Origin: an uncultured Bacilli bacterium
GTDB lineage: Bacteria; Bacillota_I; Bacilli_A; RF39; UBA660
Reading direction: 5' to 3'
Length of the DNA stretch: 47,228 nucleotides
NCBI GenBank assembly: GCA_934132925.1
Contig: CAKPAL010000002.1
Location: 1-47,228 of the forward strand
Below the pieces are notes generated by a model. The model was not told where the DNA came from and ran no database searches. It was given only the letters and a program-made list of their open reading frames with translations. Positions 3,179 to 25,671 of the stretch are shown one piece after another. The translations under genes and the position numbers were made by a program. Numbering within the stretch: position 1 is the stretch's first letter; each line of letters begins with the position of its first letter.

Positions 3179-3850
3179 TTACAATTGCCATTCTAAATGT
3201 ATTCTTTTCTTTTCATTTTCTGTTATGGTTATATCATTTTTTTCGAATTTGGATTTAAAATCAAGTCTATCATCATAAAAGAAGTTCAATATAAAATCAA
3301 TAAAATTATATAATGATATTGGACCCATCATCGGAATTCTGCATTCGTCATAGTTACTTAACGTCATGTGAGTTATTGGGTGTATAACATCAATGTGATT
3401 ATCTTCATCATAATCAACTCGTATCATAACTGGTATTCCCATCTCATTATCAAACCAATCTGTTTCAAAATTATTAATATCCATATTAGAAATTTCCTCT
3501 TTTGTCCATAGATAATTATGCTTTTTTATAAAGGTCAATCGTTCTTTAATTATTTTTCCATCTTTGATCATAAAGTCATATTGAATTATGCTTCTATCAT
3601 ACAAAAGTATATTATATTCTTTTCTTTCTAATAAAGTACTCATAATTTTTTCTACTGATAAATGCTTATCATACAAAATATTAGATTCATTTTTTCTTCC
3701 GCTACGTGATATTTCTGAAATATCTTTATTTTCTATGACAGAATATGATTTTGAATCCCTAATCATATTTTTTTCATATAATTCTTTTTGTAAACTATTA
3801 TAGTCTATAGAAAATTTTTTTAAAAAAGTTTTATTACCATCACTTGTCAT
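3179..3850 (-). CDS. Hypothetical protein, translationally coupled partner of the upstream helicase
   Basis: 223-aa ORF whose start overlaps the helicase stop by 11 nt. I could not recognise any motif by eye; DUF2290 should be tested. Confidence 0.7.
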   Translation of the reverse strand: MTSDGNKTFLKKFSIDYNSLQKELYEKNMIRDSKSYSVIENKDISEISRSGRKNESNILYDKHLSVEKIMSTLLERKEYNILLYDRSIIQYDFMIKDGKIIKERLTFIKKHNYLWTKEEISNMDINNFETDWFDNEMGIPVMIRVDYDEDNHIDVIHPITHMTLSNYDECRIPMMGPISLYNFIDFILNFFYDDRLDFKSKFEKNDITITENEKKRIHLEWQL

Positions 3851-9395: not shown

Positions 9396-10289
9396 CTATT
9401 TTTTATTAACTTTTAAGGACTGTTTTATTAATGGCATAACATTATCTATATCATCTTCATCAGATATTTCTACTCTATAATCACCATTGCCCCAATGGCC
9501 AACATTTGTTATATCCCGTGTTATACCTAGTGGATCATTTAATGTTCCTTTTTTCATATTAATATCTAGTCTCAATTTATTCTGAGTAAACTCTACATCA
9601 ACTATGTTTTTTCTTCCTTTAAAAGCAATATATACTTTCTTTACATCTATATCAATATCATCTAATTCTAATATTCTATTTTTTAATATATTATAAAGTC
9701 TTCTGGTTTTTTCAGATACTTTGTTTAAATGATCATCTTCTATATATACTTTAATTTCTTTATTAATTTCTTTTTGTTCTGATTCTATTTGTATATCTTC
9801 TACTTTTACATTGCTTGTCTTCTTTATAAATTCTATATCCACTATATCTTCTTCATATCTTGTAACTTTAATCAAATCTACAGGAATGTTTTTAAAATCA
9901 GTAGCATTAAGTTGATAACTTGTATAAATTGGCGACGCAAATATAATTCTTGACTGACTCCAATCTACGTCTGATAATTTTAAATTAGAATCATTTTTTT
10001 CATTATACTTTAGTACAAACTCCGCTTTTCTCTCTAATAACAATTTTAAATACGTATATCCTTGATCTACTAAACTATGATTTTTAATGTTCTTATATTC
10101 TATAATTCTAAACGATTTACTCTCCTCATCATATGCTAAGGTATCTAGTCTAAAATTGCCCACAGCAAATTCTGTCTCTACAAATTTATATCCAAGAATC
10201 TTTTGCAAATTTTCCTCAAAGTATTTTTGTAATTCTTTTTCATTTTTAAAATCTTTTTGTTTTAATTCTTTATTATCTTTTATTATCAT
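9396..10289 (-). CDS. PD-(D/E)xK nuclease-like N-domain fused to a DUF5655-like C-domain
   Basis: N-terminal FRLDTLAYDE...RIIEYKN (D...ExK). C-terminal ...YIAFKGRKNIVDVEF...NVGHWGNGDYRVEISDEDDIDNVMPLIKQS, typical of DUF5655 as I recall it. Confidence 0.7.
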   Translation of the reverse strand: MIIKDNKELKQKDFKNEKELQKYFEENLQKILGYKFVETEFAVGNFRLDTLAYDEESKSFRIIEYKNIKNHSLVDQGYTYLKLLLERKAEFVLKYNEKNDSNLKLSDVDWSQSRIIFASPIYTSYQLNATDFKNIPVDLIKVTRYEEDIVDIEFIKKTSNVKVEDIQIESEQKEINKEIKVYIEDDHLNKVSEKTRRLYNILKNRILELDDIDIDVKKVYIAFKGRKNIVDVEFTQNKLRLDINMKKGTLNDPLGITRDITNVGHWGNGDYRVEISDEDDIDNVMPLIKQSLKVNKK

Positions 10290-10425
10290 CTAAATCACCT
10301 ATACTTCATCTCTTATTTAATTATAACATATAAACAGTGCTTTTAGATATTTAACTTTCATTAAATGAATAAATTTATATTTTATGTCAATTTAAAACCC
10401 AATTTCTAAAAAAATCGGGTTATTT

Positions 10426-11697
10426 TTACTCCATATTTAATATTTTTTTTATTTCTTCTATCAAAGGATTATTAAGAGTCAAATAGTTATCTATATTTTT
10501 AGAAAGTTTTGCTTTCACTGTATCTTCATTTCGCTTACCTTCAATAACTGTTACATCAAAAAATTCTTTTTTTGTTGATGGAACTTCTTTTATATTTAAA
10601 TTTAATATTTTATTTACTGCATCTAACGGTGCATACAATTCAATACATTCTCTTTTTAATGCTCTTTCTTCATTAGTATCGCCGTCTTTTACTACAAAGC
10701 ACTTTTTACCAGAAGTTTCAAGTTCTTTCTTTAAATATTCAATGTTGTCGCAACCACCTCCCGGTAGTACAAAATACTCATCTGCTTTTCCTAGAAGTTT
10801 AAGTGCTGACTTAATCCACTCCAAATCGTATGCACCTTCAACTAATATATAATTTTTAGAATTTACGTTATCTAGACTCTCAAGTAATTCTATCAATGAA
10901 CTATTCTTGTCATTAAACAACGGATATATATTTGCTCCATTTCTTGCATTTAAAATTTGTGCTGAATGTGTCGTTATTAATGTCTGCCCTATTTTGTTGT
11001 GTATTTTTTTTATCATGCTTTTTGCATTGTTAATAGAAAAAGAGTTTTCTATTTCATCAATCCCTAAAATTACATTATCAAATTTATTTCCTATAATCAA
11101 TGCATATAATAAATTTTTTTGAAAACCCGAACCTCTCGCTTCTATTGGAATACCATTTGCGGTAATATCAAATTTCAAGCTTGCATCATATTTAAATTTT
11201 TGTTCTCCAACAATTTCCGTAGAACTCTCATCCAATATTATAAAATTTCTATCAACGCCTTTTATTACCTCAGTTATAGAATTTTGAGATATGTCTTTAA
11301 GTTTCTGTAATAAGTCTTCATCTGTATTTTCCAATGTTTTTGCTATTGACAATTGTTGTATCATTTGTTTTACATCATAATTACCAACAGGAATATAAAT
11401 ATACTTTATTCCACTTAGGTCATCAATATTTTCAGGGACTACATTTAGTTTATAAGATGCACCAGTGTATTCTTTTTTATAAAATTTTCCATTATACATA
11501 ATTCCTATTTCAACTGTTTTCCCCTGCTCTCTTACAAATGATTTGTCAATTTTCTCTTGATTAAAAAATATGTCTAGGGCCTGCAGTATTGTAGATTTTC
11601 CAGAATCATTTTCTCCAATAAATAAATTGTGCTTTTTGATAACAATCGTTGCGCGTTCAAACTTTTTAAAATTTTTTATATAGATACTTTCTATCAT
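10426..11697 (-). CDS. OLD-family nuclease (ABC-type ATPase + C-terminal Toprim), compact 423-aa form
   Basis: Walker A GENDSGKST, Walker B ILGIDEIENS, H-loop TTHS. Toprim motifs ILVEGAYDLEWI and VVKDGDTNEE. Confidence 0.8.
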   Translation of the reverse strand: MIESIYIKNFKKFERATIVIKKHNLFIGENDSGKSTILQALDIFFNQEKIDKSFVREQGKTVEIGIMYNGKFYKKEYTGASYKLNVVPENIDDLSGIKYIYIPVGNYDVKQMIQQLSIAKTLENTDEDLLQKLKDISQNSITEVIKGVDRNFIILDESSTEIVGEQKFKYDASLKFDITANGIPIEARGSGFQKNLLYALIIGNKFDNVILGIDEIENSFSINNAKSMIKKIHNKIGQTLITTHSAQILNARNGANIYPLFNDKNSSLIELLESLDNVNSKNYILVEGAYDLEWIKSALKLLGKADEYFVLPGGGCDNIEYLKKELETSGKKCFVVKDGDTNEERALKRECIELYAPLDAVNKILNLNIKEVPSTKKEFFDVTVIEGKRNEDTVKAKLSKNIDNYLTLNNPLIEEIKKILNME

Positions 11698-11726
11698 TTT
11701 TATTTCCTCCTACTTCTAGTTAACAT

Positions 11727-11772
11727 AAAAAACGCCAGCACAAAAAATCTATTAAATAGACCTGTACTAGCG
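11727..11772 (-). terminator. Terminator-like leader hairpin + U6 ending 13 nt before the OLD-gene RBS
   Basis: On the minus strand, CGCUAGUACA...UGUGCUGGCG gives 10 bp, two of them G-U (C/A mismatches on the plus strand). There is an inner UCUAU/AUAGA helix, followed by UUUUUU. Confidence 0.65.
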
Positions 11773-12164
11773 TCTTTCTTTAACTAACTTAAGTATATCA
11801 AATTATTTTTATTTAATCAACAAATTTAGACAAATTTCTCCATACTAAAATAATATTAGTATATATCTATTGCTTATATATAATAGATGCAATAGGCATA
11901 TTGTTATTAGACCTAGGCTAATAACAACACTAATAAGACTTACATAGTAAGGCTTATAGTGAACATAATAAAATATATATAATTATTTATTATTAACTAT
12001 TTCTTCTAATATACTTCTTATAATGCTTTCTTCTCTACTACCATTAGTAGTTAATCTAATTAATGGTATATTATATTTAGATATAATATTACTCTTTAAT
12101 ATATCTCTTTCTTTTTGTTTATTATCTTCTTTATGATATTTATATCCATCTACTTCTACTGCTG
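11737..12164. repeat. Junction module copy 1 (about 428 bp, direct repeat of 16664-17092)
   Basis: By-eye alignment gives about 90 percent identity at a constant offset of 4927-4928 bp. Confidence 0.9.
11792..11820 (-). promoter_or_regulatory. Predicted sigma-70-type promoter TTGATT-17-TATACT inside junction module copy 1
   Basis: Hexamers and the 17-nt spacer read directly. Conserved in copies 2 and 3. Confidence 0.5.
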
Positions 12165-12201
12165 TAATGACATTTTTGAAAAAATAAACCTTAAGTTTCA
12201 T
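11983..12201 (-). pseudogene. Truncated DUF2726/DUF559-type (Vsr-like fold) endonuclease-domain remnant
   Basis: ...AVEVDGYKYHKEDNKQKERDIL...IPLIRLTTN. Only the C-terminal half of the domain is present, and the repeat boundary falls inside the domain at VEVDG. Confidence 0.6.
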
Positions 12202-13051
12202 TTTTTTCGTTTTTATATTGTTTTTCTATTTCATATATTTGATTAAAATAATTGTTAATTCTTTTTTTATCATCTTCAAAAGAAGAGGTGTCGTCGTTAT
12301 ACATATTTAATAGTTCTTTATATAGATTTAATCCATAACGTTTTATAAATTCTTCTTTATACTCTTTGGATAGTAAATAGTCTTTTAGTTTAAAGTAAAT
12401 ATAATCTAACTGTTCAATCGTAGTATTCTTAAAATCTATATTTTTAAAATCTTCAATCATTAAACGGTTAAACTCATATATATTTGGAAACTCATTTTTA
12501 TTTTTTTCATTTGCCTCTTCTAAAACTATTATTGATTTTTCATAAGATACTCGTATCTCTATATTTGATAAAATGAAATCTAACAATTCGTTTTTTTGTA
12601 ATTTGTTTAATTCATAATTTAAAACATAATTACAAACATCATATAGTCTAAAAAACTTTTCTTTATCTATACTGGTTTTAAAAATAATATATTCTTCTTC
12701 ACAATTAACTTTATCATAATGCTCATTCTTATTTCTAAAAGCCCTATATAATTCGGCAAATATATATTCTTTGGACTGACACTTCAAATTTTTTGATATT
12801 ATTGTTTCATTAAATAAACATTCTAGCTTGTGAGCATTTTCAAAATATTCCTTTTTATCAACAATTGCTCTGGCATAATTATATAAATTTATTTGAAACT
12901 GTTCAAATTTAGAATTTATATCATTTTGAATATCTGTATCAAATTTTTTCTGAATATTATTGATTAATCTTTTATATTCATTTAGATATTTATCAACTTT
13001 ATTTTTTCCAATCAATATAGATGATAAAATATGTTTCTTTTTTTCTTCCAT
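12191..13051 (-). CDS. Hypothetical protein with an Rx4H motif (possible HEPN-like), last gene of the KAP NTPase operon
   Basis: 286-aa ORF with RBS GGTGA, starting 10 nt after the upstream stop. The motif YRAFRNKNEHYD fits R-x4-H. This is weak single-motif evidence. Confidence 0.6.
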   Translation of the reverse strand: MEEKKKHILSSILIGKNKVDKYLNEYKRLINNIQKKFDTDIQNDINSKFEQFQINLYNYARAIVDKKEYFENAHKLECLFNETIISKNLKCQSKEYIFAELYRAFRNKNEHYDKVNCEEEYIIFKTSIDKEKFFRLYDVCNYVLNYELNKLQKNELLDFILSNIEIRVSYEKSIIVLEEANEKNKNEFPNIYEFNRLMIEDFKNIDFKNTTIEQLDYIYFKLKDYLLSKEYKEEFIKRYGLNLYKELLNMYNDDTSSFEDDKKRINNYFNQIYEIEKQYKNEKNET

Positions 13052-13061
13052 CGGTTCACCA

Positions 13062-14852
13062 CTAAATTTTTGTTTTATTATATGTCACACGAATTTTATT
13101 TTTTTTAATCTCGCAATTATTTATAATACCTTTTAATTGTAAATAGTTCATTAATGTATACATATAGTCAACATTTTCAAATGATAAAGATGTAGTAACA
13201 CCATTTCTTATTTTGCTTATTCTTTCATTTATTTCATATAAATATTTAATATTTATAGGATTAGATTTATGTAAATATATAAAATAATTAATTTTATCTT
13301 TTATTTCTAAGCAGAAAAATAACTGTTCTACTATGGAATCATTTAAGAAAATATTATTTTTTATTATTTCATTTATCAGATATGATAATCCTTTTTTAGA
13401 AATTATTGATATGTCAATAACATCTAACAATTGTATTTTTTTATTAATATCAATATTACTATTTATTATCTCGTCTATAATAAATGTGTCATGTTCAATA
13501 TTATTTTTTAAATTCAAATAATCATCATATTTATTAACCACCAATTTAGACAATAGGATTATATTTTTTTTAAATAAATAATTATATGTATCTATGTTTA
13601 AATCTACTTTATTAAAATTTATTAATTCTTCAACAAATTCTTCATTGATTTCTAATTCGTAATTAAATAAAGAAATAATATAATCAAATTTTTCGGCTAT
13701 AATTTTATAATTTATTAGTGAATTTGAAGTAGAATAAATCATTTTTGATTCAAAATCTTTGAAATTATCATCATTAATTACATTATAGTCGTTTCCAATT
13801 TCTGATAATAAGTATTGTATTACTTCATCTATTTCACCAACTTCATTATAATAACATAAAATATTTTTCATTGATATATTAATATAATTTTCAGTAATAA
13901 TTTCTTTCCATAAACTAGTGTCTTCAATATCATTAATATTAGTAATATTTTCATTTTCTTTCTCTAATATTAAAATTTTCTCCTTTTTATTTAAATTAGA
14001 AGAATTAATAGCTTTTAAAATATTAAGTTCTTTACTATCATATATTTTAAAACTATTATAAAATTTGGCAAACGAATTTGATTCAATAAGTTTATCTTTG
14101 AAATTAGTAAAATTGTCATTTTCAAATAGCATGTCTATTACATCAGCATCTTTATAATAGTTATCAATTTCATACAAATCTATTAATTTATCATAAAACG
14201 ATTTATTTGGAACATAAAATTTGTTATTGTAAAATATATCTATAATTGCCACCACTATTTCATCATAATCTTTAAATGATGGTTTCAAATAATTAATGTT
14301 TAAAATGCTTGTTTCATTAATTTTTAATTTATTTAAAAAATCAACATTTTGTTCTAAAAATTCTTTTAATTTTACATAGCAATTTTCTTTTAAATCAAGT
14401 TTAATATTTTCTAATATTAATTTTAACCATTTTTTATTATTAGTTATGATTTCTAAATTATTAAAGAAATATAAAATTAATTCATTATCAAATATTTTTT
14501 GCAACACTTTTGTGAAATTAATTTCATTATAATTACAATATTCATCTAAAAATTTTAGTTTATAATTATTCATTTGTTTAAATTGAGAGTAAAATTTCTG
14601 CTGCTTGAGAGAAGAAATATTATTTATTAGATAGTCACATATATAAAAATTTAAAACTGTTTCTTTATTAAAATCTTTTGCTTGAATAATGTTAACAATC
14701 TTTTCTACATTTTTTAATTCATAATTATAATTTGCTTTTTCATTAGTATCAACCATTATTAAGAATGAATAATCCATTTGAGTTAAATCCCCTGACTTAA
14801 AATAAGACAAATTATTTTCATAGTTTTCTTTAATAAAGCCATTTTTTACCAA
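13062..14852 (-). CDS. C-terminal continuation of the KAP/YobI-like NTPase frame (annotated ORF has only a TTG start and no RBS)
   Basis: Same reading frame as 14907-16583. The 18 codons between them are open, and only one TAG separates the two ORFs. Confidence 0.6.
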   Translation of the reverse strand: MVKNGFIKENYENNLSYFKSGDLTQMDYSFLIMVDTNEKANYNYELKNVEKIVNIIQAKDFNKETVLNFYICDYLINNISSLKQQKFYSQFKQMNNYKLKFLDEYCNYNEINFTKVLQKIFDNELILYFFNNLEIITNNKKWLKLILENIKLDLKENCYVKLKEFLEQNVDFLNKLKINETSILNINYLKPSFKDYDEIVVAIIDIFYNNKFYVPNKSFYDKLIDLYEIDNYYKDADVIDMLFENDNFTNFKDKLIESNSFAKFYNSFKIYDSKELNILKAINSSNLNKKEKILILEKENENITNINDIEDTSLWKEIITENYINISMKNILCYYNEVGEIDEVIQYLLSEIGNDYNVINDDNFKDFESKMIYSTSNSLINYKIIAEKFDYIISLFNYELEINEEFVEELINFNKVDLNIDTYNYLFKKNIILLSKLVVNKYDDYLNLKNNIEHDTFIIDEIINSNIDINKKIQLLDVIDISIISKKGLSYLINEIIKNNIFLNDSIVEQLFFCLEIKDKINYFIYLHKSNPINIKYLYEINERISKIRNGVTTSLSFENVDYMYTLMNYLQLKGIINNCEIKKNKIRVTYNKTKI

Positions 14853-14906
14853 AGAAATTAGAATTTTATTGTTTAGTAGTTCTTTATAATTATCATCATT
14901 ACTTAA

Positions 14907-16583
14907 CTATTCGTTTATACTATCAATGTTCAGTATTTCTTCCATAGACATTTCTTTATATTTTTCTATTAATTCTTTATTATAGATAATTTTTTCTTCC
15001 ATTTTTTCAAATTCATAATCTAATTTCTCTACTTTATCTAAAAATTCATTTTTAATTTTTGCTTCAATAGATTTTGTGTTATAACTAGAAAAGTTACAGC
15101 GAATATCTTTATTTCGTAAATCCTCAATATTTATTTCAGAATTAATAAAACCATCAAGAGATAATTCTTGTTCACCAATATAAATTTTTGTTTTATTTAT
15201 GTAATTATTAAAATATTCATTTTTTAAAATGTCTAGTAAAAATGATTTTTTTAAATCTTTTAAATCCTTAATTTTTTGACTTTTTGCATCATTAATTTCT
15301 TTAACAATTTGATTATTATTTTCAATTAATTCATTAATTAGCATTCTTATAAACTCTTTTTTAGAATTAAATATATTATACAAATCACCATCATATTCAA
15401 GTCTTTTATCAAAATCAGAAGGGTTGATATTTTTATAACTAATGATAGCAAACAATTGTGTATAGTCGATATCCTGATTATCTTTTAATACATCAATATA
15501 CATCTTAAATTCCATAAAAATATTATTTAATAATCTTCTATCTTGTATGTGTAGGCTTAATATGCTAAACAAATTCTCATTAATTGTTAACTCATATTTA
15601 TTTTGAATTTTTTTATATAATTCCATTATATATTGTTTTGCATTTTGGCTTGAAAACTTTGAGATGACTGGTATTATATTATCAAAAAATTTCACTCGAT
15701 CCTCCGGATTTAAAAACAAATCATCCCTCAAAGCGTAAATAAAAATTACACCACCATTTTTAGAAATAGTTTCATTAGAATTCAACATGAAATTAAGTTC
15801 TTTCAATTTTTTAAATATTTCTAATGATATTTTCTCATATCTATCTAAGTCTTCTATGATAAGAATTTTAGTTTTTGTTTGTTTAAAAAAATATACAATT
15901 TCATCTAGATATTTATTAAATACCGACTTTTCATCATTATTCGAAAATGAAATTTCTAAGTCTTTATATTTCAGTGCTAAAGTATTTATATATATTTGAA
16001 TTATACTAATTAATTTATATATGCATAGAAATATAACTATAAAATATATATAATATATAATAAAGATAATACTATCAGAAAGGTATTGATGAAAAAAATT
16101 GTACAATGGAGTGAGCATGGCCTCATAAACCTCTGGAAAATAAAAATTTATACATAACATTATGAAACATGAAATTATTGCTAATGAAATTTTTTTTAAT
16201 CCACTAATATATTTAATTCTTTTAAATCTAGACAATGGCAATTTATTTTCATCAATAGTGTAAATTATTTGTTGTAATATTTTTGTTTCTATTTCATTAG
16301 AAACAATATTGGTTTCATCACCTGTTGCTTGTTTATAATTACCTAATGATATTCTTATACTTTTGTAACTATTATCTATTTTTTTTAATATTGAATTTAT
16401 TATACTAGTTTTACCAATTCCATATCTTCCTGTAAAAGCAATTATTTTATTTTTATGTTTAATTGCCTCCATAAAACTATTAAAATATATATTTTTTTCA
16501 TCAACATCATCTCTTGGAGCTAATGAAAAAAATATTTCATCTTTATTTTGCAATTCCTTCCTTTTAAAAACTTTTTTACTCAT
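14907..16583 (-). CDS. KAP-family P-loop NTPase with TM helices inserted in the NTPase domain (YobI/Tmn-like), ends at an in-frame TAG
   Basis: Walker A TGRYGIGKTS. Two to four hydrophobic helices at about aa 125-200. KAP-type Walker B ILIIEDLDRY. Confidence 0.85.
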   Translation of the reverse strand: MSKKVFKRKELQNKDEIFFSLAPRDDVDEKNIYFNSFMEAIKHKNKIIAFTGRYGIGKTSIINSILKKIDNSYKSIRISLGNYKQATGDETNIVSNEIETKILQQIIYTIDENKLPLSRFKRIKYISGLKKISLAIISCFIMLCINFYFPEVYEAMLTPLYNFFHQYLSDSIIFIIYYIYFIVIFLCIYKLISIIQIYINTLALKYKDLEISFSNNDEKSVFNKYLDEIVYFFKQTKTKILIIEDLDRYEKISLEIFKKLKELNFMLNSNETISKNGGVIFIYALRDDLFLNPEDRVKFFDNIIPVISKFSSQNAKQYIMELYKKIQNKYELTINENLFSILSLHIQDRRLLNNIFMEFKMYIDVLKDNQDIDYTQLFAIISYKNINPSDFDKRLEYDGDLYNIFNSKKEFIRMLINELIENNNQIVKEINDAKSQKIKDLKDLKKSFLLDILKNEYFNNYINKTKIYIGEQELSLDGFINSEINIEDLRNKDIRCNFSSYNTKSIEAKIKNEFLDKVEKLDYEFEKMEEKIIYNKELIEKYKEMSMEEILNIDSINE

Positions 16584-16602
16584 TCATGTACACCTCACTT
16601 CG

Positions 16603-16644
16603 AAAAAATAAGCAGTATCCATCTAAAAAAGAATAAATACTGCT
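16603..16644 (-). terminator. Second terminator-like hairpin + U-run immediately upstream of the KAP NTPase RBS
   Basis: On the minus strand, AGCAGTAT...ATACTGCT (8 bp) is followed by TATTTTTT, then GAAGTGAGGTG and the ATG. Confidence 0.55.
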
Positions 16645-16663
16645 ATCTTTCATTTATAATTAT

Positions 16664-17092
16664 AGCACAAAAAATCTATTAAATAGACCTGTACTAGCGT
16701 CTTTCTTTAACTAAATTAAGTATATCAAATTATTTTTATTTAATCAACAAATTTAGACAAATTTCTCTATACTAAAATAATATTAGTATATAGTTATTAC
16801 TTATATATAATAGATACAATAGGCATATTGTTATTAGACCTTAGGCTAATATCAACACTAATAAGACTTACATAGTAAGGCTTATAGTGAACATAATAAA
16901 ATATATATAATTATTTATTATTAACTATCCCTTCTAATTTACTTCTTATAATACTCTCTTCTCTACTACTATTAGTAGTTAATCTTATTAATGGTATATT
17001 ATATTTAGATAGTATATTATTCTTTAATATATCCCTTTCTTTTTGTTTATTATCTTCTTTATGATATTTATATCCATCTACTTCTACCGCTA
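16664..17092. repeat. Junction module copy 2
   Basis: Direct repeat of 11737-12164. Confidence 0.9.
16719..16747 (-). promoter_or_regulatory. Predicted promoter TTGATT-17-TATACT (module copy 2)
   Basis: Identical hexamers and spacing to copy 1. Confidence 0.5.
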
Positions 17093-17255
17093 ATAATGGT
17101 TTTTTACTTATATTATTATATATTAAGAAATCTATATGAGTATTATGGTGAGAAGTATATTTTCTTTCTTCTTCTGTTAATAATGTTTTATCTTTTATTA
17201 ATATATCTAAAATTTTATTTATGTTTTCTTTTATATAAATATACTCCTCCTGATA
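16911..17255 (-). pseudogene. DUF2726-like ORF (114 codons) lacking an ATG/GTG/TTG start
   Basis: Own translation gives ...HIDFLIYNNISKKPLLAVEVDGYKYHKEDNKQKERDIL...IPLIRLTTNSS...NNK*. The only candidate start is an ATT behind AGGAGG. It overlaps the end of the upstream gene by 41 nt. Confidence 0.55.
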
Positions 17256-17757
17256 TTACTCCTATACCTAAGATTGTGTTTAATAAACTATTGCTATCCT
17301 TTTCATCTTCACTATCATTATCTTCAATATTTTTACTAGTGGATATTATACAACTTCCATCATCCACCTCTGCCTTCGGATCATAGTTATCTGCTGATGG
17401 ATTTTTACATCCTAGTACATAATATTCACAGGTTCCGTTATCTTTATTTGCTGATGAATTATAGTTCTTTGCTGTTTCATCTGTGCATCCATATGTATAA
17501 TAGATACAACTTCCATCATCTCTATTAGCACTAGAATTATAATTACTTGCATTTTTGTCTGTGCACCCATAAGTATAGGTAACTGTTGGTGTACATGTAC
17601 AATTAGGACTTAAAGTACCATCATTACAAACCAATCTTCCAGAACTACTACAACCGCTAACACCACCATGATGAGAACAGCAACCCCTCGTTGCATTAAC
17701 CTTTAATGGCATCAATAGTATAATGCACACTAAAATTACTATTATTTTTTTCTTCAT
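17215..17757 (-). CDS. Secreted/membrane-anchored Cys-rich protein with three tandem YGC(T/K)...NY...A..D(D/N)G(S/T)C repeats
   Basis: Signal peptide MKKKIIVILVCIILLMPLKVNA, a GCCSHHGGVSGC motif, three repeats of about 32 aa, and a C-terminal TM helix plus KRKHK. Confidence 0.8.
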   Translation of the reverse strand: MKKKIIVILVCIILLMPLKVNATRGCCSHHGGVSGCSSSGRLVCNDGTLSPNCTCTPTVTYTYGCTDKNASNYNSSANRDDGSCIYYTYGCTDETAKNYNSSANKDNGTCEYYVLGCKNPSADNYDPKAEVDDGSCIISTSKNIEDNDSEDEKDSNSLLNTILGIGVISGGVYLYKRKHK

Positions 17758-17775
17758 TCTATATCACCCTACCAC

Positions 17776-17823
17776 AAAAAAAACACCAGCACAAAAAATC
17801 TATTAAATAGACCTGTACTAGCG
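17776..17823 (-). terminator. Terminator-like leader hairpin + U8 ending just before the RBS of the Cys-rich gene
   Basis: Same hairpin as 11727-11772 (CGCUAGUACA...UGUGCUGGUG), followed by UUUUUUUU and then GGTAGGGTG and the ATG. Confidence 0.65.
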
Positions 17824-17890
17824 TCTTTCTTTAACTAAATTAAGTATATCAAATTATTTTTATTTATTCAATATATTTTGACAATTTTCT
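17784..17890. repeat. Junction module copy 3 (promoter + leader half only)
   Basis: Aligns to 11733-11840 and 16664-16765. Confidence 0.85.
17843..17871 (-). promoter_or_regulatory. Predicted promoter TTGAAT-17-TATACT (module copy 3)
   Basis: Read directly. Confidence 0.5.
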
Positions 17891-18069
17891 TATTCATCAT
17901 CTTCTGAATAATAATCATCATCTTCTAGTTCTTCTTCTTCAAAGTTAAATGAATCATACTTATTTTCTTTTACTAATTCTTTTTTCCAATCTTCTAAATC
18001 ATTATTATCTTTTTTATTATTGTCTTGAGTATCTGCAAATGCTTTTATTAAGTTCCATATCAAACACAT
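17890..18069 (-). CDS. Small, extremely acidic protein (59 aa from the ATG behind GGTGGTGAG)
   Basis: The C-terminal half is almost pure D/E/Y (FEEEELEDDDYYSEDDE). The track start at 18084 is a TTG. Confidence 0.55.
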   Translation of the reverse strand: MCLIWNLIKAFADTQDNNKKDNNDLEDWKKELVKENKYDSFNFEEEELEDDDYYSEDDE

Positions 18070-18117
18070 AGTCTCACCACCCAAAGTTATTATATCATTA
18101 TTGTATATAAATTTTAA

Positions 18118-18390
18118 TTAATATTTTATATCTTCCCCTAAGCCATTAACAAAATTAATATCAACATCAATTATTTTAAGCACTTCAAAATATTTACTAT
18201 TTTCTGTTATTCTTGGACTTATGTTTATATTAAACTTTTGATATAAATATTTTTGTAAAAAGTTGTATATGTCATGTCCTCTTATATAATTAGCATTATT
18301 TTCGAATTTTATTGATACATTATTAAAATAATCCATTATTAAATCATTTTTCCCTATTACTTCTTTAATCTTTTTATTTTGTCTTTCCAT
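18118..18390 (-). CDS. ORF that is probably the C-terminal part of the Toprim/DUF4435-like protein (reached by a -1 shift)
   Basis: No RBS. Its frame stays open for 44 codons upstream of its ATG, back into the A7 tract region of the upstream ORF. Confidence 0.5.
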   Translation of the reverse strand: MERQNKKIKEVIGKNDLIMDYFNNVSIKFENNANYIRGHDIYNFLQKYLYQKFNINISPRITENSKYFEVLKIIDVDINFVNGLGEDIKY

Positions 18391-19106
18391 TAAGTTTTTT
18401 CTAAAATAATAGTTATACTTTCCAGTAAAATCAAAGTCAAAAATATCTTCTGCTGTAATTTTTTTACCGGTTTTTTTCCATATAAGAATTCTACTCTGGT
18501 TGATGGTAAGTACGTATGATATTTACACTTTTTACATGCTATTGTAGTACTACACTTTAAACGATTATAGTATGAAACTTCTTTAATAAATCTATTTAAA
18601 TATATTATAAATTCATTTAGATCTGCTTCTGTTAATTTAAAATATTCAAATATTTTTCTTATATTTCTTTTTGAAAAGAAATAATTTTCAAATGCGTAAC
18701 CATTTGTAATATTAAAAACTTTTTTATTTAAATATTTTTCATCATAATATTCACTCAATAACCCATAATTATCGCTATCAATTATAAAAATAGATTTCTT
18801 TAGTAAGTATTTAAAGTTTACATATGAATTAATTTCATAATATTTTTTTATCACACTTTCTTTTCCTACACGGCATTCCTTTATTTCATCGTTTTTTGTG
18901 AGTCCAGTAATAAATTTTATTTTTTTGTTACTAATAGATAAATTTTGAATATTTCCATAAAAATCCTCATCTGTTGGTCCTTCAACATAGCAAATATAAT
19001 CTAAATCTTCATAATTTCTGATTATATTTGTATCTATAATTACTGATGATATTGGGGGATACGTTCTATTATTTAAGAACGAATCTTTAAAATTATTATA
19101 ATTCAT
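18390..19106 (-). CDS. Toprim/DUF4435-like nuclease (AriB-like), N-terminal frame
   Basis: CYVEGPTDEDFY (Toprim Glu) and FIIDSDNYG (DxD-like). Start overlaps the ATPase stop by 11 nt. The last roughly 27 aa (...PVKKLQQKIFLTLILLESITIILEKT) look out of frame. Confidence 0.7.
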   Translation of the reverse strand: MNYNNFKDSFLNNRTYPPISSVIIDTNIIRNYEDLDYICYVEGPTDEDFYGNIQNLSISNKKIKFITGLTKNDEIKECRVGKESVIKKYYEINSYVNFKYLLKKSIFIIDSDNYGLLSEYYDEKYLNKKVFNITNGYAFENYFFSKRNIRKIFEYFKLTEADLNEFIIYLNRFIKEVSYYNRLKCSTTIACKKCKYHTYLPSTRVEFLYGKKPVKKLQQKIFLTLILLESITIILEKT

Positions 19107-20553
19107 TATTTTTCTCCATTGGAAGGCATATTAAATAATCTAAATATTCATCGTGGCTAACTATATATGGTGATTGCGTTGCAATTATTAGCCTATTATA
19201 ATTACAGCTTATTATATCCTTAATTAATTCCTTTTGCCATACTGCTGACAAAGATGTTTCTGGTTCATCTATCAATACAATCATATTATCTGAAAAAACT
19301 AACGTCGTAAATAATATAATTATCTTTTTTTCACCTTCTGACAGTTCATTAAAATATATATCGTTTTTATAATCACTAGTAGATATTAAAATACCAAATG
19401 GCGTTGCTATAACTTCTTTGTTATTAAAATACTTCTTAAATATATTGTTTAATTTATCTAATTTATCGTTTTTTATATTTAAATATTTATTCCCAAATTT
19501 ATCAAGTAATGCGCAAAGTAACTCATAGCCATCACCATCTTTAAACCATATATCATTGTATCCTTCATTAAGCTTATTATTTAATATATTATTTTCAGGT
19601 AATAGTGGTTTTATATAAGCTAATATTTTATTATACTCTGTTTTACTTATGTTATGTTTTATTTGTAATTTTTCTGTATTATCAATATTTTCATAAATAA
19701 AATCATATAGATTTTCTTTAAAAGTATCGATATCTTTTTTACTATAAATATTACTAAACAACAATTTACTAATATTCAATTTATTTGATATTCTTTCTTT
19801 TTCAAAATTCATTTGATAATTTTCTTTTAGTTTATCAATATATTTTTTATCTAAGTACCTTTTTTCTTTTTTTGCTCTATAGCTAAGTAAAGGCTTTGCT
19901 TTGTATTCTTCATTTTGATCTATATCCTCTATTAATTCATTATTAAACAAATTAGTAACGTCATAATCATTTGATAATTTAAGAAAAAGAATATCATTAA
20001 ATTTTAATTCATTGATCATACTTTTAATTTTAACATGTAAATTACTCATATTACTATCTTGATAATAATAGCCATCTTCTACTACTATTTTTGATTTTAA
20101 ATATATATTTTTAATTATTGGTTCTATATAACTTAAAAAACCATCATTAAAACCATCATTAACAAAATACCTTAAATCTCTCTTATTATTTAAAAGTCTA
20201 AAATCCTTGTTTAATTTATATAGTTTTCTATAATCTAATTCATTTAGGAATTCCATTAACATATCTGATGGTTCTTCTGAATTATACTGAATTTTATAAT
20301 TTTCATATATATAATCATTTGTTAGACATAAGTCGCTATATTTTATAGTTACAGTATCATTATCATTTATTATTTCTATTGACTCAAAATAATAGTCCTG
20401 TAATTTAATGTATCTAAATTCTAATAAGCATTTCAAAATACTAATTGTAGTTGATTTTCCGATTCCATTTTCTCCGATAAAAATATTTATTTTATTATCA
20501 AAATTAATTTCATTATTATATTGACCAAATATTTTATTTATTTTTATTTTCAT
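19096..20553 (-). CDS. ABC/SMC-like AAA ATPase (AriA/PtuA-like)
   Basis: Walker A GENGIGKST, signature-like LSEGEKK, Walker B MIVLIDEPETSLS, ATQSPY. Start moved to the ATG at 20553 behind AAAGGAGAGAG; the track start is 20688. Confidence 0.8.
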   Translation of the reverse strand: MKIKINKIFGQYNNEINFDNKINIFIGENGIGKSTTISILKCLLEFRYIKLQDYYFESIEIINDNDTVTIKYSDLCLTNDYIYENYKIQYNSEEPSDMLMEFLNELDYRKLYKLNKDFRLLNNKRDLRYFVNDGFNDGFLSYIEPIIKNIYLKSKIVVEDGYYYQDSNMSNLHVKIKSMINELKFNDILFLKLSNDYDVTNLFNNELIEDIDQNEEYKAKPLLSYRAKKEKRYLDKKYIDKLKENYQMNFEKERISNKLNISKLLFSNIYSKKDIDTFKENLYDFIYENIDNTEKLQIKHNISKTEYNKILAYIKPLLPENNILNNKLNEGYNDIWFKDGDGYELLCALLDKFGNKYLNIKNDKLDKLNNIFKKYFNNKEVIATPFGILISTSDYKNDIYFNELSEGEKKIIILFTTLVFSDNMIVLIDEPETSLSAVWQKELIKDIISCNYNRLIIATQSPYIVSHDEYLDYLICLPMEKNNEL

Positions 20554-20659
20554 TAAACTCTCTCCTTTTAAATTTATTATATCATAACTTTTTACTAAAT
20601 ACGACATTTTGCTTATTTTTCTACTCTTATTTAGATATCTATTTGACAAATCTAATGAA

Positions 20660-20688
20660 ATTATAATGTTTATCATTAGTCTTGTCAA
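20660..20688 (-). promoter_or_regulatory. Consensus sigma-70 promoter TTGACA-17-TATAAT for the PARIS-like operon
   Basis: Perfect hexamers and a 17-nt spacer on the minus strand. Confidence 0.7.
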
Positions 20689-20700
20689 AATAAATATAAC

Positions 20701-20838
20701 TACTATAATATTATTAGTATATATCTATAACTTATATATAATAAGTATCTTGGATACTTTTAATTAAGATAAGTTTACTTAGCTTAATTAAACACTAATA
20801 AGACTTACATAGTAAGGCTTATAGTGAACATAATAAAG
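20701..20838. repeat. Junction module copy 4 (hairpin half only, central part substituted)
   Basis: Shares AATATTATTAGTATATATCTAT..CTTATATATAATA and ACACTAATAAGACTTACATAGTAAGGCTTATAGTGAACATAATAAA with copies 1 and 2. Confidence 0.8.
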
Positions 20839-20883
20839 ATAATTTATAGGTATATTAAAACTAAGACTTGATATCTTAGTTTA

Positions 20884-21222
20884 TTATTTAGTTAATGTTA
20901 ATGTTCTTATTTTAAATTCTTTAGTATCATAACCCCATAGATTAGATACGAATCTTGTATTATTTATTATTATATTTTCTTCTTTATGATCATGACCATA
21001 TATCCATACTGGTGATTTATATTCTTTTACTTCTGTATAGTAACAAGAGTTATTACCCCTACTATTACTTTTATTTCTAAATGGTGGTACATGAGTTATT
21101 ATTAAATCTATATTATTTGGTAAGTTATTATACCAGGATATGCTATCGTTATGTAGTTTTTGTATTTTTTCTTTTTTGGTACTTATATTATATTGAAATG
21201 TGTAAATTGTGTCAAATAAAAA
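20884..21222 (-). pseudogene. Metallophosphoesterase C-terminal remnant (no start codon)
   Basis: Own translation gives ...NNIDLIITHVPPFRNK...SPVWIYGHDHKEEN...TLTK*, with the GNH(D/E)-less tail motifs ITHxPP and GHxH. The open frame is only 112 codons and contains no Met. Confidence 0.6.
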
Positions 21223-21300
21223 CTATTGACACTTTTATAAATGTCTACCCTAAAGGGTGCATTTCATTTATCTGTCAACAGTTTTTGTGGATAAATAGTT

Positions 21301-22710
21301 TTACCTTACAATATATAAATATGGTTCTTTCTTTAACTCATTAAACTCTGATTGAGTTATTGTCTTAATTGTTACATCTGGTCCATTAATTAAAACATAA
21401 TATATTATACTATATTTACAATCGTAATCTTTGCATACTCCTTCTAGAATATCTATTTCTTTTTGGGTAATAAAGAATGGCTTATCTTTAGTTCCATAAG
21501 ATGTTTTAACTTCAATACAAATATGTTCTCTTGATTCATTAAAACTTATTATATCATAACCTAATCCATCAAAAGTTATTTCATCATTAACTTCTGCTAC
21601 TACTTTTACTTCATTAATTAAATCATTAAATCCTAGTTCTTGTAATTTTTGCTTTTCGGCTTCAAGTACTATTTTTTCTCCTACTTTTCCATGGGCTATT
21701 TTTGTTTCATTTTCTTTTGAATAATTATGATGTGCTCCTTTTGATCTTTTGCTACTACTTATTTTGGTATTTGTATGATATTTTTCATTAGAGAAATTTA
21801 TATTATATATTTCTTTTGTTTTAGTATTATCATTATCTATTATTACTTTATTCTTTTCTTCGTAAGTAATTTCATCTGACTTGTCGTATGTTTGTTCTAA
21901 TACTAACTTTAGCATTCTTTCATAGTCATAATTAGTAATATTTTCATCTCTTAGTCCTTTGCTTTCCATATAGTACATAAGTGCTTCTGGGTATGTTTCC
22001 ATTTTCTTCATAAATTTATTGGAAAGTCCTTGTTGTTTTCTCATGTAACGTAATTGATTTTTACTGATGTTAAAGAGATCTGCTACTAGTGAATCTGCTA
22101 TTCCTTCTTTTATGGATAATTCAAATAAAATATCATATGTTAAATCTTCTTTATTGAATTGTTTGCCACTTTTCTTCTCTTCACATAACTCATTATATAG
22201 TTCTTTATTATCGTTAAGTACATATTCTTTTTCTTGTCCTTTTAAGGTATTGGCCTTGTTAGTAGCATATTCTATTACTTTTTTCATATTATTTATGCGA
22301 TAATCTCTATCTATTTCTTTACTAATTAAATCTTTTTGTACTTTTTCTCTAGTAAAATCTATCTCTGATATTTTTTTGATGTAGTTATCTTTATGTGGAA
22401 CTCCCGTTAATAATAATTTTGCTAGTTCATCTGCTAATTCTTTCCTTATTTTATTACTTATGTATGAATTTTGGTAATCTATATAATCTAAAATAACTTC
22501 TATATTTCTTATGGTGTCTTCAAGATAAATGTTAGTTATTTCTTTTTGCTTTCTGATATTGTCAAATTCCCTGGTTGTTATATTAAAGGCTTCAGCAATC
22601 TCTTTAACAAGATATGGTTTATTAATTAATTTGATTAGTTCTTCAGATGATAAATCATATATACTATATTTATCTGCATAGTATTTTAAATCATGTTTAG
22701 TTAAATCCAT
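21301..22710 (-). CDS. DUF3883-type (restriction-endonuclease-like fold) C-terminal domain protein with two N-terminal HTH-like modules
   Basis: C-terminus HGKVGEKIVLEAEKQKLQELG...GYDIISFNESREHICIEVKTSYG...FFITQKEI. The N-terminus has repeated (I/F)N(I/T)(T/S)..(F/L)..(I/M)RKQ(K/Q) segments. Confidence 0.75.
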   Translation of the reverse strand: MDLTKHDLKYYADKYSIYDLSSEELIKLINKPYLVKEIAEAFNITTREFDNIRKQKEITNIYLEDTIRNIEVILDYIDYQNSYISNKIRKELADELAKLLLTGVPHKDNYIKKISEIDFTREKVQKDLISKEIDRDYRINNMKKVIEYATNKANTLKGQEKEYVLNDNKELYNELCEEKKSGKQFNKEDLTYDILFELSIKEGIADSLVADLFNISKNQLRYMRKQQGLSNKFMKKMETYPEALMYYMESKGLRDENITNYDYERMLKLVLEQTYDKSDEITYEEKNKVIIDNDNTKTKEIYNINFSNEKYHTNTKISSSKRSKGAHHNYSKENETKIAHGKVGEKIVLEAEKQKLQELGFNDLINEVKVVAEVNDEITFDGLGYDIISFNESREHICIEVKTSYGTKDKPFFITQKEIDILEGVCKDYDCKYSIIYYVLINGPDVTIKTITQSEFNELKKEPYLYIVR

Positions 22711-25496: not shown

Positions 25497-25525
25497 TTGA
25501 CTTTTTATGATAGTTATAGTATCAT
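25497..25525 (+). promoter_or_regulatory. Predicted promoter TTGACT-17-TATCAT for a plus-strand small RNA
   Basis: Read directly. There is no plus-strand CDS downstream. Confidence 0.45.
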
Positions 25526-25531
25526 TGTATT

Positions 25532-25645
25532 ACCGGAGAGAAATCTCGTCAGGTCGATAGCTCAATGTCGATTTTATTAAATTAAGTGTATGTTAAGTAC
25601 ACCGCTTGAGTTGGGGAGAGACTATTTTATAGTCTCTTTTCTTTT
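25532..25645 (+). ncRNA. Candidate orphan small RNA (about 110 nt) ending in a strong intrinsic terminator
   Basis: The most GC-rich non-coding patch in the window. Elements: GAGA-GAAA-UCUC (GNRA) hairpin, CTCAA/TTGAG long-range pair, GTGTA/TACAC hairpin, and terminator AGAGACTA-ttta-TAGTCTCT followed by TTTCTTTT, which has a U-run only on the plus strand. Confidence 0.45.
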
Positions 25646-25671
25646 AAATTATCAACAGATTCTGTTGATAA

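Follow-up and report, generated by a model that had tools for sequence, protein, structure and literature searches.

Tmn is a named anti-phage defence system that consists of a single gene, is represented in PADLOC by the model PDLC02220, and has been characterised in Escherichia coli as Tmn-25 (Wu et al., 2026 preprint; PMC13001434). Phage resistance in E. coli Tmn variants is brought about by trigger-activated ATP turnover and plasmolysis (PMC13001434). The NTPase of Tmn is of the YobI type, and YobI is regarded as a family separate from KAP that is defined by two transmembrane (TM) helices inside the P-loop domain (PMC13001434). KAP NTPases (PF07693), such as PifA and Kidins220/ARMS, are also membrane-associated P-loop NTPases, and they are implicated in defence or signalling. 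To our knowledge, no function has been demonstrated for YobI itself, whose length in Bacillus subtilis we take to be about 1,200 amino acids (aa). In this study, we analysed a 47,228-nucleotide stretch of contig CAKPAL010000002.1 (the window) from an uncultured Bacilli bacterium. Its minus strand carries a Tmn/YobI-family gene that is interrupted by a single in-frame TAG. We consider this gene to be a recent loss-of-function allele of a known Tmn/YobI defence gene in one strain, with a probability of about 0.8.

As judged from sequence and predicted structure, the window gene is similar to Tmn in its YobI-type P-loop NTPase with two internal TM helices and in its long helical C-terminal region, whose distal arm is a solenoid. 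Intact alleles, like Tmn, code for a single polypeptide of ~1,170-1,270 aa. The gene also lies in a defence island beside OLD/Gabija-like and Septu/PARIS-like (PtuA/AriA-type) ATPases, and it has no universal partner gene. Unlike E. coli Tmn, it belongs to a very AT-rich uncultured gut Bacilli lineage, its sequence past about residue 600 has diverged to the point where the PADLOC model aligns only weakly, and in this lineage it is followed after 10 nt by a gene for a 286-aa protein with an Rx4H motif. Moreover, the window copy is cut by the TAG at the junction of the proximal and distal arms, so it is not one continuous polypeptide. The likeness to B. subtilis YobI rests on the PF20693 model, which residues 37-401 match from end to end; the uninterrupted frame is similar to YobI in length, whereas the window copy is interrupted. 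In contrast to KAP NTPases, the window protein has no PF07693 match at E<=0.01, and a few of its distant relatives show weak matches to that model. These results settle the annotation of the two open reading frames (ORFs): they belong to one disrupted Tmn/YobI-family gene rather than to a new abortive-infection system of two or three genes.

The interrupted reading frame

The minus strand from 16583 to 13062 forms a single 1,173-codon frame, in which the sole internal stop is a TAG at 14909..14907, corresponding to codon 559. The 1,174-codon translation contains this one internal stop and the terminal TAG. The parts of the frame are listed below.

16583..14907, minus strand: ORF 1, 558 aa, ATG start, GAGGTG 8 nt upstream
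14852..13062, minus strand: ORF 2, 596 aa, TTG start, same frame as ORF 1
14907..14909, minus strand: premature stop TAG, codon 559, derived from TTG (Leu) by T>A at window position 14908 (coding strand)
14910..16583, minus strand: codons 1-558 of the Tmn/YobI-family gene; predicted P-loop NTPase with a membrane hairpin, then a helical region, probably equivalent to the NTPase hub and proximal arm of Tmn
13062..14906, minus strand: codons 560-1173 and the terminal TAG, now 3' of the premature stop; predicted alpha-solenoid C-terminal region, probably equivalent to the distal sensor arm of Tmn, with a small alpha/beta end
16407..16430, minus strand: Walker A GRYGIGKT, codons 52-59
15972..16193, minus strand: two hydrophobic, predicted TM segments, codons 131-153 and 166-204, between Walker A and Walker B
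15840..15866, minus strand: Walker B region ILIIEDLDR, codons 240-248

The 54 nt between the 558-aa and 596-aa ORFs are open and are translated without a stop as LSNDDNYKELLNNKILIS. Within the window, this is the only pair of long same-frame open segments separated by a TAG. Because the pair is unique and homologues are continuous across the site, the pairing of the two ORFs is not a chance juxtaposition. A first-pass annotation, made from the DNA without database searches, had proposed one gene of ~1,173 codons broken by a single TAG, and both the translation and the contiguity of homologues across codon 559 agree with it. The same annotation had found no ribosome-binding site for the downstream ORF; indeed, a Shine-Dalgarno-like run is absent from the 20 nt (ACAATAAAATTCTAATTTCT) before its TTG, codon 578.

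Family identity and domain structure

The 558-aa part matched Pfam PF20693 (YobI-like P-loop NTPase, YobI-ATPase) with an E value of 7.3e-83 and a score of 279.5 bits against a cut-off of 27, residues 37-401 being aligned with model positions 5-362 of 363. It also matched the PADLOC Tmn model PDLC02220 (residues 31-543, model positions 40-582 of 1273, 1.3e-42), and the match of the intact allele L006 to this model extended from residue 31 to 995 (model positions 40-1017 of 1273, 7.6e-32). The GRYGIGKT motif, the TM segments and the IIEDLDR motif are present at the positions reported in the first-pass annotation. They follow the order Walker A, two hydrophobic helices, Walker B, which the Tmn preprint describes as the signature of the YobI family (PMC13001434). 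The TM segments are predicted from hydropathy, with maxima of 2.06 and 2.57 for the two segments (Kyte-Doolittle, 19-residue window). These profile matches and motifs identify the N-terminal part as a transmembrane P-loop NTPase of the YobI/Tmn family.

Membership of the KAP family, whose hallmark had been seen in the N-terminal part at first reading, was not supported, because Pfam KAP_NTPase PF07693 did not match the 558-aa part at E<=0.01 and YobI is treated as a family apart from KAP. A PDB sequence search with the intact protein gave no match. The intact gene is most likely of a known type, Tmn single-gene anti-phage defence, and a new system is unlikely. The earlier description of the locus as an uncharacterised abortive-infection-type system is not supported, since Tmn is already a named defence system with a PADLOC model and a published mechanism (PMC13001434).

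The C-terminal 614 codons had no match of their own in the Pfam, NCBIfam and PADLOC searches. An exhaustive phmmer search with the C half returned 202 relatives, most of which are 1,200-1,260 aa long and were matched at residues ~590-1240, so both halves are colinear with full-length family members. Thus, the 596-aa part follows the C-terminal halves of YobI-family proteins of ~1,200 aa, as had been supposed. The AlphaFold2 model of the C half has a mean predicted local distance difference test (pLDDT) score of 87.4 and is nearly all helical, with ~40 helices and a small terminal alpha/beta unit. Its best Foldseek matches in the PDB were weak, and every one was a HEAT/ARM/PUF-type solenoid. 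The C half is predicted with confidence to be an alpha-solenoid, which is also how the distal arm of Tmn has been described (PMC13001434).

Ancestral state and age of the stop codon

Codon 559 is TTG (Leu) in all 11 near-identical alleles that cover the site, and relatives at 81%, 54% and 24% identity have single ORFs spanning 1,173-1,198 aa. The alleles compared are as follows.

L001, L006, L012, L013, L017-L023: near-identical (at least 98.9% aa identity), 11/11 with TTG (Leu) at codon 559
L006, L017-L022: near-identical and complete, 7 unbroken ORFs of 1,173 aa
L025, L028: ~81% identity, single ORFs
L007, L008: ~54% identity, single ORFs
L009, L010: ~24% identity, single ORFs of 1,198 and 1,180 aa

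Since the close alleles read TTG and the distant relatives are single ORFs, the TAG is a derived single T>A change. The relatives run contiguously across codon 559 instead of being divided into a pair of genes of which the second has its own ribosome-binding site. At least 64 contigs carry exact intact 1,173-aa sequences, and intact is therefore the common state; the truncated product of 558 aa is found in exact form on 14 contigs. The TAG itself is carried by five separate gut metagenome assemblies (L033-L037), four of which belong to a Hadza/Nepal cohort and one of which has 21x coverage according to its contig name. They show 0-3 differences from the window over 4.5 kb, and contig L033 is 100% identical to window 9907-21583. 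This near-identity indicates that all TAG copies represent one clone.

When differences were polarised with the 81% relatives as the outgroup, the changes assigned to the window lineage in this gene were 2 synonymous, 3 missense and 1 nonsense. Downstream of the TAG there are E840K and one synonymous change, with no additional stops or frameshifts in the remnant, so the lesion is young. The TAG is a real, recent mutation in the strain sampled. Of the three options raised in the first-pass annotation, the recent nonsense mutation is thus the one favoured by our data, with TTG in 11 of 11 alleles and no downstream decay.

Differences among copies of the TAG allele (L035 and L036) are confined to window 14411-14430, 20 nt of the C-terminal remnant, and may reflect strain mixing or local mis-assembly. 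Three further candidates were set aside. P0155 (559 aa, 81% identity) was tried as an independent stop at the same site and is uninformative, as it stops 10 nt short of where its 2,249-nt contig ends and its tail is divergent. The frame break of L004 is only apparent and corresponds to a run of 10 N in the scaffold. P0162 and P0163 (697 and 693 aa, in a Bacteroidota-like context) are truncated relatives with unrelated DNA downstream and are uninformative for this lineage.

Probable consequence for Tmn function

In its intact form, the gene would code for one 1,173-aa protein with an N-terminal P-loop NTPase, two TM helices between Walker A and Walker B, and helical cytosolic arms. By analogy with E. 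coli Tmn, the putative alpha-solenoid distal arm would sense a phage protein, and sensing would lead to ATP turnover and membrane-linked cytoplasmic collapse. With the single T>A change from Leu-559 (TTG) to TAG, translation would end at about the junction of the proximal and distal arms. The product would be a membrane-anchored NTPase hub that lacks the sensor arm, and the 614-codon remnant has no convincing translation start. The most likely result is the loss of Tmn defence in this strain, which would be ordinary turnover of a costly defence gene.

The PADLOC alignment places codon 559 near model position 600, at roughly the proximal/distal arm junction of the characterised Tmn. The N-604 fragment of E. 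coli Tmn-25, comprising the NTPase and the proximal arm, did not bind the trigger RIIB, while constructs with both arms bound it, and the arms set specificity (PMC13001434). A point mutation in the distal arm of Tmn also altered phage specificity (PMC13001434). Because codon 559 lies close to the end of N-604, which fails to bind RIIB, we infer that the 558-aa product is a hub without a sensor and that defence is lost.

Several observations weigh against this interpretation. The 614-codon remnant has stayed fully open in all copies of the TAG allele, as expected for a young lesion, but continued use would account for this equally well. The arm may be translated independently to some extent from codon 603. 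In the preprint, the arm-less Tmn fragments were assessed for trigger binding and not for defence (PMC13001434). The TAG clone has spread across several hosts, which suggests that the lesion is at least not strongly deleterious. Finally, other disrupted alleles have lesions at codons ~650, 695 and 708, all within ~150 codons of the window TAG and near the start of the distal arm.

L001 2194: disrupted allele, 99.65% identical, A6->A5 frameshift at codon 695
L002 ~3690-3745 (= L003): disrupted alleles, 82% identical, 26-bp tandem duplication near codon 650
L005 1-96: disrupted allele, starts at codon 708, fused to unrelated DNA

L001, L002 and L003 are Logan assemblies, and their lesions are possibly assembly artefacts. 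Taken at face value, the clustering of lesions at the start of the distal arm is the sole feature that random decay does not predict.

The intact and truncated alleles differ at 15-19 of 3,522 nt, and both occur in gut metagenomes from one set of cohorts. They form a natural matched allele pair for the contribution of the distal arm, with the stop at the boundary between hub and sensor arm that has been defined experimentally in E. coli Tmn. This pair sits in a Gram-positive, very AT-rich lineage in which Tmn has not been studied so far.

Alternative explanations

The TAG might divide the gene into two working products, a 558-aa hub and a distal arm initiated separately at ATG 603 or TTG 578, which could reassemble non-covalently into active Tmn or act as hub only or arm only with an altered specificity or a decoy role. 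We regard such a functional split as unlikely. The stop stands at a domain boundary, the remnant ORF is intact in all copies of the TAG allele, and arm fragments of E. coli Tmn-25 bind the trigger without the hub, but distal-arm-only fragments bound it weakly (PMC13001434). The copies represent one clone, however, so the intactness of the remnant is no evidence of selection. AGGGGA occurs ~11 nt before the ATG at codon 603, but this spacing is long, which makes it a weak candidate, and the first in-frame start (codon 578) lacks a Shine-Dalgarno sequence. Gene callers have used both starts, the one at codon 603 giving a 571-aa product, and these choices are annotation rather than evidence of translation. 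Three other alleles are also broken within codons 650-708, near the start of the distal arm, but they are broken by a frameshift, a 26-bp duplication and a truncation at differing sites and share no conserved restart signal. In addition, a two-gene arrangement with a stop here is seen in none of the relatives, whether close or distant, and the 11 near-identical alleles all have Leu. A related explanation is that separation of sensor arm and hub is recurrent and selected, not random decay, in view of four independent lesions (TAG 559, ~650, 695 and 708) in one small clade, the spread of the TAG clone between hosts and the intact arm ORF; we find it quite unlikely. If it were true, the hub alone or the hub with a free arm could represent a Tmn that has been disarmed or re-tuned in nature; it might, for instance, escape autoimmunity against the trigger of a resident prophage and still take part in ATP-linked cross-talk with its Gabija/Septu-like neighbours.

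Low-level amber read-through or suppression could yield a little full-length Tmn and serve as an expression throttle for a toxic protein. The perfectly kept frame after the TAG would fit this, and so would the two terminator-like hairpins of the leader, which are suggestive of tight control of expression. Such read-through is very improbable, because TAG is a normal stop here, ending 8 of the 36 long minus-strand ORFs of the window, including this gene at its natural end. The window also contains no tRNA gene, hence no suppressor tRNA, and no other gene split by an in-frame TAG, and recoding of TAG was rejected on the same grounds. Furthermore, the ancestral state, kept in all relatives, is a plain Leu codon, which means that the stop has not been conserved as a regulatory feature. 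Both the split and read-through, which the first-pass annotation had listed beside the nonsense mutation, are still compatible with the sequence but gained no support. A sequencing or assembly error, with TTG as the true codon and an intact gene, would account for a one-base difference from closely related intact alleles, but there is next to no chance of it. It is effectively refuted by the occurrence of the exact truncated product on 14 contigs and of the TAG in five separately assembled metagenomes, one of them at the 21x coverage given above. A recent loss-of-function mutation thus remains our preferred explanation.

The downstream gene

The gene next to the Tmn-like gene has the following position.

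12191..13051, minus strand: 286-aa all-helical protein with an invariant RNxxEH (Rx4H) motif, start 10 nt after the Tmn-like stop, own GGTG ribosome-binding site

Only in the 99% and ~80% lineages does this gene occur together with the Tmn-like gene. Elsewhere, the Tmn-like gene is followed by a gene for a Fic protein (L004 and L007), by unrelated ORFs (L005 and L008) or by nothing (L002), and homologues of the 286-aa protein at 58% identity stand alone. These varied neighbours agree with the published absence of a conserved Tmn operon (PMC13001434), and the operon with the Rx4H protein assumed earlier is not obligatory. From its distribution, the 286-aa gene is a lineage-specific neighbour. 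Its RNxxEH motif is invariant in 22 homologues. No match to the protein was found in Pfam, NCBIfam or PADLOC, and 2 of the 22 homologues showed a weak match to Ribonuc_2-5A (0.0043). The AlphaFold2 model is all-helical (pLDDT 85), and Foldseek found nothing significant for it in the PDB. A HEPN identity of this protein is plausible.

Leader, repeats and genomic context

The Tmn-like gene is preceded by a leader with two terminator-like hairpins, as reported in the first-pass annotation, and the cassette formed by this gene and the 286-aa gene is bracketed by ~450-bp direct repeats.

16584..16760, minus strand: promoter-like TTGATT-17-TATACT, and a 5' leader in which each of two hairpins precedes a U-run; terminator-like site, leader-copy alignment, fold -29.8 kcal/mol, z -2.7
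16644..16611, minus strand: second leader hairpin, 13 bp, then a U-run, ~27 nt before the Tmn-like start codon; specific to this leader copy
11711..12163, no strand: ~450-bp direct repeat, downstream copy, with a DUF2726 gene 3' fragment, a hairpin and the shared promoter/leader
16638..17091, no strand: ~450-bp direct repeat, upstream copy, 91-95% identical to 11711-12163

The promoter scan was uninformative in this AT-rich DNA (74 sites against 64.5 expected), and the leader had no Rfam match at E<=1. The DUF2726 assignment was taken from precomputed Pfam hits. Partial copies of the ~450-bp repeat lie at 17762-17965 and 20701-20837. In L006, L012 and L017, the cassette is placed between repeats of the identical type but has different neighbours, suggesting that island cassettes have been swapped by recombination between repeats.

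The window is chromosomal, with genes for UvrA, a P-type ATPase, a two-component system and ABC transporters, and megablast searches of phage and plasmid collections gave no match to 12000-17000. The low-GC defence island extends from ~3.2 to 27 kb, with 19-25% GC against ~27-30% elsewhere. Besides the Tmn-like gene, it contains genes for a DUF2290 protein with a helicase, a D12 methyltransferase, PDC-S18, an OLD/Gabija-like ATPase, a PtuA/AriA-like ATPase, a NOV_C protein and a SocA/Panacea pair.

A 34-mer, GACGCTAGTACAGGTCTATTTAATAGATTTTTTG, is identical at 11741-11774, 16668-16701 and 17792-17825 (minus strand), inside a conserved promoter/5' leader of ~110 nt. It stands upstream of three unrelated cassettes, which code for an OLD-like ATPase, the Tmn-like protein and a Cys-rich secreted protein, and no such repeat is expected by chance. 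The 34-mer was not found in viral contigs, and this leader could represent a regulatory element common to the three cassettes. Flanked by defence cassettes, and itself under the common leader, 17215-17757 (minus strand) codes for a 180-aa protein with an N-terminal signal/TM segment, a C-terminal TM helix and repeated Cys-rich 'GCTD..NYNSSAN.D.G.C' units, which weakly matches NCBIfam PRK10040. In addition, an Rfam DUF3800-I RNA motif (67 bits against a gathering score of 44.2) lies at 25525-25649 on the plus strand, just upstream of the SocA/Panacea-MqsA-like gene region.

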